Source of the DNA: Anaerolineae bacterium
Lineage (GTDB): Bacteria; Chloroflexota; Anaerolineae; CG2-30-64-16
Length of the DNA stretch: 42,744 nt
Assembly (NCBI GenBank): GCA_034429055.1
Contig: DAOUGK010000039.1
Location: 1 to 42,744 of the forward strand
Direction: 5' to 3'
The translations under genes and the position numbers were made by a program. Below the pieces are notes generated by a model. That model ran no database searches, was not told where the DNA came from, and saw only the letters and a list, made by a program, of their open reading frames with translations. Shown piece by piece: positions 28,801 through 31,800 of this stretch (its first letter is position 1; each line of letters begins with the position of its first letter).

Positions 28801-31800
28801 ACCGCAGCGGCAGAGAAGGCCCGCATGGGCGCCGAGATCGTCGACCTCACTTACCGCAAATACTATGCGGACCCGGCGAGCCAGAAATACGTCGATACGC
28901 AGATCGACCCATCCGACAATACAGCACGTGCCTGGGGCGTGGCCGACTGGGCCGAACGCGCAGGCCAGGGCGCTTACTTCGACTGGGTGATCGCGAATGC
29001 AATCATCCCGCCGGTGGATGACCGCTACACCGACCTCCGGAAGATCGACCGTACCACCGTCATGGACATCAGCGAGATTGCCAACCAGTACGCAGCCGTC
29101 GAGGCCAAGCTCGACAAGGCAGATAATCTGGCAAACCCGCTCGGCCTGACGGGCGATGCCGTACTGTTCGACCTGGACCCGGCGCTGACCAAGACAACGC
29201 CCACCACGGAAGGGCTAACCCACTTCGAGCAGGTCTACCAGCGCTCGTTGAGCAGCCTGAGCAATGCGCTGAAGCTGTACGACTATGCGAACGAGGTCAA
29301 GCTCCAGCAGCGGCAGGCGCAGGATCAGCTCCGCGACTTCTCGCTCAGCATCATGGACGAGGACCGGGCACGCGTCAACGAGCTGATCGAGATCTTCGGC
29401 TACCCCTACGACGCCGACATCGGTGTGAACGGGACCTACCCGGCCGGGTATGACGGGCCCGATATCTACAACTACGACTTGATCGACCGCACTGAGATCA
29501 CAGACTCCGAGATGCGGTGCAGCGAACAGGAGCTCGCGGCCGGGGAATGCCCGACCGAGACGGCCTCGTACGTGCTCGAATTTGCACCCATGGAATGCCT
29601 GGGCAACTACGTGACAACCCTGACCGGCTACGTCTACGGCCAGCCGTTCAAAGTCGAGGACGTCTGCCAGTCGGTCATGCCCACGGAGAACCTCGTGCTC
29701 GACTATACCGTGGGCATCGGCCTGGATGCCGGCTTCGGCCGGTACAAGCCATTGTCGTGGCCCGACGACAGCGCCCGCAAGGCCTGGGGCGAGATCCAGC
29801 GCAAGATGTGGGGAGTCTACGACGCCAAGACCGAGTATGAGACGGCGGCCGTGGCCTACAACAACCATGTCGAAGCCCTCGAAGAGCACTACAAGGCCAT
29901 GAAGGATCGGGCCGAGTACCTGCGAACGAAGAACTCGCTCGATGCAGCGACTAAGGCCACGCTCCTGGCCCTGGACGAAACGATGCATGGCATCGACATC
30001 GGCAAGAGCATCTATGACATCATCAAGACCAGCATCTACGACAAGAGCTGGGCGACGGCCATGGGCCAGCCTTTTGTGGTCGGCATCGACAACGATATGG
30101 GGTTCATGGCAAGGCTTACCGCAATGATGGCGGGCTTCGCCTTCAAGGATGCGATGGACACGCTGGAGAGCCAGCTCTCACTGACCAAGAGCATCCTTGA
30201 GGGGACCAAGGAAGCGATCGAGACCGCGGCGGCCATCGGCATGTTCGACGAGGACGCCGATATGGAACTCAAGCAGATGGGCTACGAGATGAATGGCCTG
30301 CTGCGCGAGGAGCGCATGCTGCGTCTCAGCCTGTACCTGGCCGTCGACAACTACTACGGCTCGTTCGACGACTACAAGGCGGAGGTACAGCTCGGCTTCC
30401 GCAAGCTCCAGGACCTGATCCGGCTGCGCAAGCGGTGGGCCGGGCAGATTGCGGAGCAGCGCTACGGCGACATGGCTTATCGGATGTATCAGAACGACGC
30501 GCTGCTCAAGTATCGGCAGCAGTTCGACCTGGCACAGACCTACGTCTACCTGACGGCGGCGGCCTACGACTACGAGACCAACCTGCGGGGCGAGGACCCG
30601 GCTGCGGGCGGCAAGTTCCTGCGCGATATCGTCGCCACCCGCTCGCTGGGCGAGCTGCGCTGGACGACCGGCCCCTGGGATGTGGAGCCGATCGTCGGCT
30701 CCGGCGGGCTGGCGGAGCCGCTCGGCAAGATGCGCGACAACTTCGTGGTGCTGAAAGGCCAGATGGGCTTCAACAACCCACAGGCCGAGGCGAACCGGTT
30801 CTCGCTGCGCCACGAGCTATTCCGGCTGCGCGACGAGTCGGATGCCGCCTGGCGGCAGACCCTGGCGCGCTACTACACACCCAACATCTACGGCGAACCG
30901 GTCGTGGCTGAACTCGCCAAGCGGCCCTACGGCTCCATCGGACCGGAACCCGGGCTGGTCATCCCGTTCGGCTCGACCATCACCCGGCGGCTGAACTACT
31001 TCGGCAACCCGCTCGGCCCCGGCGACAGCGCATACAGCGCGACACAGTTCTCGACTAAGATTGCCAACGTCGGCATCTGGTTCGAGGGCTACGACACGAG
31101 CCGCCTGAGCCGAACCCCGCGCGTGTATCTCTTGCCCGGCGGCCAGGACGTCATCCGGCCACGGAACACGGAGGGTGTGCTGCGATACTGGAACGTGACC
31201 GAGCAACTCCTGCCCATCCCCTACCCGATCACGCAGGCCGACATGCAGAATCCGAAATGGATCCCCAGCATCGACGGGCTGCAAGGGCAGTTCCTGAAGG
31301 TCAAGCCGTATGCAGACATGCGGGCTTACCCATACACCGAAGACTTCGAGCCGACCGAGCTAAATACCGACACACGGCTCATCGGGCGGTCGGTTTGGAA
31401 CAGCAAATGGGTGCTGGTCATCCCCGGCGCCACGCTGCTGTCCGATCCCGACAAGGGCATTGACCGCTTCCTGCAGGACGTCGACGACATCTACATCTAC
31501 TTCCAGACGTATGCGTACGCAGGTACGGCGGCCGCGGCAGACGCGGGAGTCGAAGAGCAGGGTCTTGGGCAAGTGCAAGACCTGTCCTCACAGCCGCAGC
31601 AGGCAGCCGGCGTCTCTGCTCTGACGGCCGCGGACCCGAAGGCCATGCCCCAGCCGGATGCGCTGTTCTACGGCGTCGCGCTGCGCGATGGCGCGGCCAT
31701 GGAAAGCGGGACGCTGACGGCTATTCTGCCGAGGGGCGGGGTGGTCACGACCGAGATCGCACCCATCACAGGCACAAGCTACAACTACGCGCTGGCAGTG

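Follow-up and report, generated by a model that had tools for sequence, protein, structure and literature searches.

A probable remote relative of the TcA pore-forming and TcB-binding domains in a giant protein of an Anaerolineae bacterium

The DNA considered here is a stretch of 42,744 nucleotides (nt) from an Anaerolineae bacterium of the Chloroflexota (assembly GCA_034429055.1, contig DAOUGK010000039.1), referred to as a whole as the window, which contains a giant open reading frame (ORF) for a protein of 5392 amino acids (aa). A sequence-only reading of the window had proposed that a region towards the end of this protein resembles the C-terminus of the A subunit (TcA) of the Tc (ABC) toxins, which are investigated for their insecticidal action and as devices for programmable protein injection. 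The analysis described below confirms the observation, supports the interpretation in part, and goes beyond it in two respects: the region belongs to a huge conserved family with partners of its own, and the stretch that follows it in the window is a fused form of the gene that usually lies downstream.

The giant protein and its family

The giant ORF starts at a GTG codon that shares 4 nt with the stop of the upstream ORF 14144-16759, and an intact orthologue, 98% identical to the window, is present in an independent assembly, the Anaerolineae metagenome-assembled genome AnMBR.bin525 (locus L054). Pfam recognizes only Laminin_G_3, PKD and Dockerin_1 in the protein, to which NCBIfam adds four N-terminal choice-of-anchor-Q units, with no NCBIfam match across the C-terminal half. 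The adhesin modules that the sequence-only reading had placed on this protein are real, comprising the LamG domain, the four choice-of-anchor-Q/beta-helix units and the PKD domain. In the beta-helix array (17743-24675), long Gly/Thr/Ser-rich beta-helix repeats enclose the four choice-of-anchor-Q units. Homologous counterparts of this array in the related locus L015 are separate ORFs; the breaks there could reflect either long-read frameshifts or a real difference. The features of the giant ORF are as follows, where "core" and "module" refer to the conserved family described below, and partner D to the product of the gene that usually follows the core.

16756-32934, forward strand: giant ORF, 5392 aa, GTG start, Sec-type signal peptide at aa 19-55
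17215-17697, forward strand: LamG/concanavalin-like domain, aa 154-314 (Pfam Laminin_G_3, E 2.8e-21)
17743-24675, forward strand: right-handed beta-helix/choice-of-anchor-Q array, a lineage-specific adhesin-like region (NCBIfam choice_anch_Q, four stretches, E 1.8e-41)
24793-27972, forward strand: N-terminal part of the family core, aa 2680-3739, Ig/FN3-like beta-sandwiches (BLAST to full-length members)
25696-25842, forward strand: PKD insertion inside the N-terminal part of the core (Pfam)
27973-29790, forward strand: helical part of the module, aa 3740-4345, with invariant PQGHGDAWG and WNFT motifs (family alignment)
29791-30579, forward strand: predicted alpha-helical hairpin of 91 and 159 residues, aa 4346-4608, putative counterpart of the TcA pore-forming domain, with motif 1 at its end (AlphaFold2, Foldseek, hhalign)
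29983-30180, forward strand: hairpin tip, aa ~4410-4475, with conserved E..P...G...D (family-averaged hydropathy and charge)
30580-31530, forward strand: alpha/beta C-terminal domain, aa 4609-4925, putative counterpart of the TcA TcB-binding domain, with motifs 2-4 (Foldseek)
31531-31644, forward strand: low-complexity Ala/Gln/Gly linker, aa 4926-4963, joining the core to the fused partner (from the sequence itself; missing in non-Anaerolineae members)
31645-31980, forward strand: homologue of the partner D N-domain, fused in frame (BLASTP to downstream ORFs of loci L019, at E 1e-23, L026, L092, L027 and L031)
32002-32181, forward strand: type I dockerin, aa 5083-5142 (Pfam Dockerin_1, E 3.6e-8, 33.9 bits, cut-off 22.9)
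32269-32931, forward strand: beta-rich domain, called a cohesin in the sequence-only reading, followed by a Pro/Glu-rich tail (no Pfam match at E<=10)

Searching with aa 3740-4930 returned hundreds of proteins that share a module of ~1190 aa at ~40% identity across phyla, with no Pfam domain on this module in any member returned. An exhaustive hidden Markov model (HMM) search gave at least 2000 cluster representatives at 50% identity, with E<=1e-30 for at least 1113 of them. The proteins are Sec-exported and 2100-5340 aa in length, and carry the module almost always at the extreme C-terminus. A word-indexed protein search gave members of up to ~2080 aa, and because of this difference in length the shorter entries are likely fragments, or the index is length-limited. 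The conserved core corresponds to aa ~2680-4923 of the giant protein (~2250 aa). At least 578 stretches encoding the module were found in GTDB species representatives, and the taxa concerned include Chloroflexota, Thermoanaerobaculia, many Verrucomicrobiota, Lentisphaerota, Hydrogenedentes, Omnitrophota, Geobacteraceae, Acidobacteriota and Gammaproteobacteria, the last with the cultured Wenzhouxiangella sediminis, Marinicella pacifica and Marinicella sp. W31. Free-living environmental bacteria make up most of the hosts. No description of the family was found in the searchable literature, and the NCBI record of one member carries the name 'TolC family protein'.

The helical part of the module contains a dockerin/EF-hand-like Ca-binding loop (DVNQDGFVNEADAAI, nt 28588-28635, aa 3945-3960) next to the PQGHGDAWG motif, and 3 of 31 members show a weak Dockerin_1 match at this loop. 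The best-conserved portion of the family, by alignment and family averages, is the alpha/beta C-terminal domain, the last strand of which reads ...DIYIYFQTYAY in the window. In nearly all of the ~84 sampled loci, as in nearly all of 150 cluster representatives, the protein finishes with this domain, with the stop 7-8 residues past the terminal strand (..F[QE]TY[AS]YSGN, then the stop codon), just as TcA proteins end soon after ..DIILHIRYT... The region had been described as the C-terminus of its ORF, which is the case in nearly every other family member; in the window, ~470 aa come after it.

Evidence for a relationship to TcA

The sequence-only reading had listed four motifs in the order known from the TcA C-terminus, all of which are present, in the claimed order, at aa 4586-4921 of the one ORF: YRQQFDLAQTYVYLTAAAYDYETN (aa 4586-4609, nt 30511-30582), NRFSLRHELFRL (aa 4680-4691), STKIANVGIWFEGY (aa 4766-4779) with RVYLLPGG (aa 4789-4796), and RLIGRSVWNSKWVLVIPG (aa 4874-4891) with VDDIYIYFQTYAY (aa 4909-4921, nt 31480-31518). 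The TcA motifs with which they had been compared are also authentic. The string YFQFYDLAVARCLMAEQAYRWELN occurs letter-perfect in the PDB sequence of TcdA1 (residues 2262-2285 of 2516), where it shares 10 of 24 positions with motif 1 of the window, and it is conserved in TcdA4, XptA1 and XptA2; the remaining ones are represented in the TcA homologue SepA by RRIKQISVTLPALVGPYQDVRAVL, DPRYLPFEG and LSDIILHIRYTIIS. In TcdA1 the TcB-binding domain comprises residues 2327-2516, placing motif 2262-2285 just upstream of it (bioRxiv 10.1101/590430).

The first line of evidence for homology is structural. In an AlphaFold2 (AF2) model of aa 3740-4930, built from a 31-sequence multiple sequence alignment, model helices 607-697 and 711-869 (91 and 159 residues) form a hairpin, which is followed by a mixed alpha/beta domain with a predicted local distance difference test (pLDDT) score mostly of 70-90. 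A Foldseek search of the PDB with this model, as the sequence-only reading had suggested, returned TcA chains as all 19 of its best matches (TcdA1, XptA1, XptA2, TcdA4, YenTcA and TcaA-TcaB; E 4e-9 to 2e-3, prob 1.00, ~600-670 aligned columns). Rank 20 was taken by 6l7i_A, a 179-residue part of TcdA1 from a TcB-TcC sub-volume (template modelling (TM) score 0.53 on the target, prob 0.98), and unrelated coiled coils (MukB, SMC, Rad50) first appeared at E 0.1. Within the hairpin, the tip (aa ~4410-4475) coincides with the family-averaged maximum of 19-residue hydropathy and the minimum of charged residues.

The second line of evidence comes from profile-profile comparison by hhalign, in which a family profile of 83 sequences was aligned with a TcA C-terminal profile made from 11 diverse plasmid-borne TcA genes (from Serratia, Vibrio, Burkholderia, Bacillus, Mycetohabitans, Sinorhizobium, Rhodococcus, Nonomuraea and Allocoleopsis). 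This gave one collinear alignment of 720 columns (E 2.5e-5, probability 75%, score 58), compared with E 0.012 and score 35 for a column-reversed TcA control and E 0.075-0.18 for six block-shuffled controls. The alignment places the family tip (E..P...G...D) on the TcA tip AADMLPNIYGLAVGG, motif 1 on IYYQFYDLAVSRCLMAQQAWQWDK (TcdA1 2262-2285), GLAD..larm on LLAGE.L.L..ME, and E.t.rFSLR on lE.tk.VSL. Alignment of the helical part (aa 3740-4345) with the TcA pre-pore region was also obtained, at low confidence. The proposed pairing thus stands for motifs 1 and 2, is plausible for motif 4, and is uncertain for motif 3, because the best alignment of the C-terminal domain alone puts RRIKQISV on another family segment. 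The pairing originally claimed for motifs 3 and 4 appears only in a second alignment (E 0.25, individually non-significant), in the register TKI..VG.WF/RRIKQISVTL, W.L.IPG/TLTLSFP and V.DI.l.FQTYaY/LSDIILHIRYT.

The third line of evidence is gene context, studied in ~85 fetched loci. Behind the core gene of L017, the next ORFs carry SpvB, TcdB_toxin_midN, FG-GAP and RHS/YD-shell domains, and tblastn over the ~85 loci identified TcB-TcC downstream of the core also in L081 (Pedosphaera), L094 (Hydrogenedentes), L096 (Verrucomicrobia) and L064. In all five loci the TcB-TcC gene starts ~20-250 nt after the core stop, and the five cores are mutual nearest relatives, forming one subclade. The fused TcB-TcC genes lie at the following positions.

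L096, 13479-20528: fused TcB-TcC gene
L081, 13495-20640: fused TcB-TcC gene
L017, 15666-22528: fused TcB-TcC gene
L094, ~13470-18443: fused TcB-TcC gene
L064, 4118-5881: fused TcB-TcC gene

The bona fide TcB protein SepB aligns with the L096 gene over 849 aa (E 7e-31). The L096 and L081 proteins (2349 and 2381 aa) contain SpvB, FG-GAP, TcdB_toxin_midN, RHS_repeat and RHS above the Pfam curated cut-offs, with signal-peptide-like N-termini and mutually unrelated C-terminal toxin regions, as is typical of polymorphic toxins. Three independent lines, from structure, profiles and gene context, therefore support remote homology, and aa ~4346-4925 (nt 29791-31530) probably correspond, as a highly divergent homologue, to the C-terminal half of TcA, comprising the pore-forming hairpin and the TcB-binding domain that lies atop the channel.

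A number of results weigh against this conclusion. At the sequence level, Pfam models including PF18276, at E<=10, gave no TcA match in the region, the whole ORF or the 31 members; a phmmer search of the PDB with the single protein was empty; a PDB hmmsearch with a 31-sequence profile gave no TcA, only weak coiled-coil noise; and BLASTP of the region against the SepA C-terminus (SepA being taken from plasmid pADAP) found no match. The absence of a significant TcA match in the Pfam and PDB profile checks, which the sequence-only reading had suggested, would, taken alone, have spoken against the idea. With hhalign, the comparison with SepA as a single sequence reached a probability of 8%, and the C-terminal domain alone gave non-significant alignments (E 0.04-0.29) with two competing registers for motif 3. 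The structural match has limits as well: the AF2 model is mediocre (pLDDT 61, predicted TM score (pTM) 0.34), and the Foldseek alignment has a TM score of 0.15 on the query with a root-mean-square deviation of ~25 A, so that the match rests on local 3Di/sequence scoring. The TcA shell, neuraminidase-like domain, ABC_toxin_N/VRP1 and linker were not found, either by Pfam or by AF2 and Foldseek of aa 2680-3879, and no TcB/TcC is present in the 42.7-kb window, whether by Pfam or by tblastn with SepB, SepC and the family-linked TcB-TcC (E<=1e-5). TcB-TcC occupies the position behind the core in only ~6% of the sampled loci. Finally, the Sec signal peptides and the conserved accessory genes of the family, described below, differ from canonical Tc loci.

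Some of these points carry less weight than may appear. The negative Pfam result reflects a limit of sensitivity rather than counter-evidence, because the cores linked to TcB-TcC are equally invisible (the C-terminal 707 aa of these members also lack a PF18276 match at E<=10), while the positive control SepA matches PF18276 at E 4.3e-53. A low global TM score is likewise no surprise when a 250-residue hairpin is bent and the model mediocre; what counts in the Foldseek result, obtained from a predicted structure, is the specificity of its ranking.

The same results could be taken to mean that there is no homology at all, and that a generic coiled-coil hairpin with chance motifs happens to lie next to TcB-TcC genes in some loci. 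Such a view would account for the uniformly negative database sequence searches, the low TM scores and moderate model confidence, the non-significant hhalign result for the C-terminal domain, and a reversed-profile control as good as E 0.012. It is nevertheless hardly credible, given that the top 19 Foldseek matches are solely TcA, up to seven orders of magnitude above SMC, MukB and other coiled coils; that the alignment is collinear over the tip, motif 1 and motif 2 and better than all seven controls; that the domain, in nearly all members, has the extreme C-terminal position that it has in TcA; and that the TcB-TcC genes found right behind the stop in five loci of one subclade are not random neighbours. 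Pure coiled-coil coincidence was accordingly rejected: the Foldseek ranking is too specific, and the controls and synteny speak against it.

The extent of the resemblance is also limited. AF2 of aa 2680-3879 (pTM 0.65) gave Ig/FN3-like sandwiches, and Foldseek with this model returned generic Ig/FN3 sandwiches (best E 5e-3) and no match to the TcA shell or neuraminidase-like domain. Because the upstream 1000 aa lack a TcA match, the term 'TcA-like' can be applied only to the last ~600-1000 aa of the core. The description of the giant protein as TcA-like thus holds for the pore and TcB-binding end, as a remote relative, but not for the shell, neuraminidase-like or ABC_toxin_N parts.

Compared with TcA proteins (TcdA1/TcdA4, XptA1/XptA2, SepA), the family shares the long alpha-helical hairpin, its hydrophobic tip and the C-terminal alpha/beta domain behind it, the motif at the helix end, the terminal strand (..DI.l.f.tY...) and, in one subclade, the directly downstream TcB-TcC gene, and its upstream Ig-like sandwiches are comparable in kind to the receptor-binding domains of TcA. 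By contrast, identity to TcA is ~10-12%, and the family goes undetected by Pfam PF18276, PF18413 and PF20220; an alpha-helical shell, a neuraminidase-like domain and a Pro-rich linker could not be detected in it; its C-terminal domain is ~320 aa in length, versus ~190 in TcA; most of its loci lack TcB/TcC; and in the window a fused partner and a dockerin come after the domain. Sec signal peptides are present on family cores, on partner D and on the TcB-TcC fusions, but are lacking in the canonical Tc toxins, which are released by lysis (type 10 secretion system, T10SS). The signal peptides of the window protein, the cultured-isolate members and the TcB-TcC-linked members were judged to be Sec-type by eye from the sequence. 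The hosts differ too, being Chloroflexota, Verrucomicrobiota, Acidobacteriota and others, while a published census of Tc loci based on curated models found ~96% in Proteobacteria and 3% in Firmicutes (PMC7861908).

Neighbouring genes and the fused partner

The gene that follows the core was counted over 67 loci, in 46 of which it is a separate, immediately downstream gene for partner D, a protein with a signal peptide, a conserved N-domain of ~100 aa and variable C-terminal modules (Calx-beta with a 7-bladed propeller, TSP3, or dockerin). In an Anaerolineae clade (the window, L054, L022, L021 and L018), partner D is fused to the core and the ORF continues past the domain, with the low-complexity linker, the partner D N-domain, a type I dockerin, a further domain and the Pro/Glu-rich tail following in this order. 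The pieces of this fusion are separate ORFs in L015. The fusion suggests the docking domain (the alpha/beta C-terminal domain) as the normal seat of partner D.

The ORFs adjoining the giant ORF in the window are as follows.

13412-14020, forward strand: small ORF, 202 aa (Pfam Cohesin E 1.3e-3, 19.4 bits, below the 24.1 cut-off)
14144-16759, forward strand: upstream partner ORF, 871 aa, of the family termed here p573, with an SdrD_B insertion (homologues upstream of the core in 53-61 of ~85 loci)
32962-36120, forward strand: downstream ORF, 1052 aa, with internal repeats, confined to the Chloroflexota clade (tblastn to L054, L022, L021 and L015; no Pfam match)

The p573 family (~573 aa; for example L016:5978-7696, L004:2632-4353 and L017:5224-7083) has an invariant NPF.H..HPDHDNLD motif, and gave no match either to Pfam or, as a profile, to the PDB. 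A gene for a SurA/PrsA-type peptidyl-prolyl isomerase (PPIase) accompanies the family in 39 of ~85 loci (e.g. L016:4953-5945, L004:1637-2614 and L002:14080-15252), and its product may help the giant protein to fold outside the cytoplasm; the window ORFs that were scanned gave no Pfam Rotamase match. A protein of ~731 aa (p731) is encoded just upstream of the core, either separately (L016:7714-9906) or, at many loci, fused in frame to the core in ORFs of ~2800 aa (e.g. L032:5231-13630 and L044:5276-13633); in the window its position is taken by the LamG and beta-helix arrays. p573, the PPIase and partner D are conserved extras of the family; p573 and the PPIase have no counterpart in canonical Tc loci. 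Some analogy exists with the split A subunits (Yersinia YenA1/YenA2 and TcaA/TcaB), which likewise consist of several polypeptides with accessory proteins, comparable to the split or fused p731, and YenTcA and TcaA-TcaB are among the Foldseek matches of the family model. The split points and accessories are unrelated, however, and sequence similarity is confined to the pore and docking region. The accessories of YenTc are chitinases.

The sequence-only reading had also proposed that the giant protein is tethered by a cohesin-dockerin pair. The type I dockerin (33.9 bits) was substantiated; a cohesin within the giant ORF was not, since neither this ORF nor ORF 32962-36120 has a Pfam Cohesin match at E<=10. 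ORF 13412-14020, with its match below the cut-off, is homologous to a 195-aa ORF of L015 and restricted to the Chloroflexota clade, ORF 32962-36120 resembles an L015 ORF with faint Cohesin and Collagen matches, and aa 5198-5272 of the giant protein are similar to an L015 ORF whose Cohesin match is only faint. ORFs 13412-14020 and 32962-36120 are candidate receptors of the dockerin. As in cellulosome-type systems, a type I dockerin at aa 5083-5142 is thus accompanied by weak cohesin-like signals in neighbouring ORFs; unlike in those systems, the dockerin-bearing protein has no carbohydrate-active catalytic modules, and a cohesin is not confirmed. A dockerin borne by a TcA-like docking domain is not known from other systems.

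The sequence-only reading's statement that the window lacks TcB/TcC proved correct, with no Pfam RHS, SpvB or TcdB match and an empty tblastn search at E<=1e-5. The remainder of the window has the look of ordinary chromosome, with a GH38 C-terminal fragment, a GFO/IDH/MocA oxidoreductase, an MFS_2 sugar transporter, a 7TM-PAS histidine kinase, a GH36 melibiase and a LuxR-type response regulator at 44-12834, and a DUF2207 protein and RNase II (both on the reverse strand) and FtsH at 36206-42658. No mobile-element or lysis-cassette genes adjoin the giant ORF.

The scarcity of cocoon genes bears on what a TcA-like hairpin would do in these bacteria. One alternative is that the protein is a stand-alone pore-forming or lytic surface weapon, in which the hairpin makes a pore without cargo, the C-terminal domain and partner D cap or regulate it, and the adhesins carry it to prey or competitors. 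Isolated TcA makes pores, the hairpin tip of the family is hydrophobic, and a cocoon gene is missing from the window and from ~94% of the sampled loci. Moreover, some of the hosts are predatory or parasitic: members occur in Omnitrophota, and Wenzhouxiangella is a predator of Gram-positive cells (PMC7691419); the paper describing this predation does not mention the family. Set against this are the lack of direct lytic evidence, the presence of TcB-TcC in one subclade, and the conservation of the C-terminal domain: no other part of the family is as conserved, which suggests that a conserved partner binds there and that the domain is more than a passive cap. A cargo-free weapon of this kind is an unlikely alternative.

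Another explanation, considerably less probable, is that the protein serves the producer's own envelope, as a TolC-like duct or as an anchor for the giant adhesin and its cohesin-dockerin scaffold, so that the resemblance to TcA would stem from common descent of the fold and would not mean injection into another cell. The Sec signal peptides on cores and partners, the extracytoplasmic-type PPIase nearby in 39 loci, the adhesin and dockerin modules, the largely free-living environmental hosts and the 'TolC family protein' name of one member would all fit such a role. Against it, no OEP/TolC Pfam match is found in the window or the 31 members, Foldseek ranks TcA at the top with no TolC among the matches listed, and the family spans very different envelopes (Chloroflexota, Gammaproteobacteria and Verrucomicrobiota). 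In addition, the TcB-TcC cocoons with polymorphic C-terminal toxins in one subclade imply delivery to another cell. The TolC-like duct was rejected, there being no OEP signal.

Proposed mechanism and significance

The relationship to TcA, rather than either of these alternatives, provides the basis for a working mechanism, in which we infer both translocator function and the passage of cargo. The giant protein would be exported by the Sec route, its signal peptide being visible in the sequence, and the core would oligomerize around the hairpins, by analogy with the TcA pentamer. The tips, whose hydrophobicity is observed, would then enter the target membrane to form a helical channel, and the C-terminal domain would serve as the channel mouth on which a partner docks. 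Judging by gene order, this partner would be a Sec-exported, fused TcB-TcC cocoon with a polymorphic toxin in one subclade, and partner D in most members. In the Anaerolineae lineage of the window, the partner D N-domain is fused to the presumed docking domain and carries a dockerin, suggesting recruitment or anchoring through the latter, while the lineage-specific N-terminal LamG, beta-helix and PKD arrays may act as binding appendages. Oligomerization, membrane insertion, channel passage and the role of the dockerin are, in this scheme, inferred.

The family combines a recognizable core element of TcA with a new architecture, and departs from the Tc toxins in export route, partners and host range. 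A more far-reaching proposal, offered tentatively and with the odds somewhat against it, is that the family constitutes a very large, unrecognized branch of the TcA superfamily, a Sec-exported, adhesin-decorated membrane-penetrating machine with its own helpers, in which the docking domain usually binds a non-cocoon partner and one subclade alone has retained or acquired the TcB-TcC cocoon. If this is true, Tc-like injection would be widespread among environmental bacteria, serving them to prey, compete or attach, and would no longer be peculiar to insect pathogens; the window's fusion would then mark partner D as what the docking domain naturally binds. The fusion as such already gives a Rosetta-stone hint as to what binds there when the cocoon is missing. 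With a remote TcA-like module in thousands of giant secreted proteins of cultured and uncultured environmental bacteria, the evolutionary and ecological scope of the Tc machine would be wider, and natural variants in export route, binding arrays and docking partners would become available, as would functional leads for many 'hypothetical' giant proteins, with Marinicella pacifica, Marinicella sp. W31 and Wenzhouxiangella sediminis as cultured hosts for direct tests.

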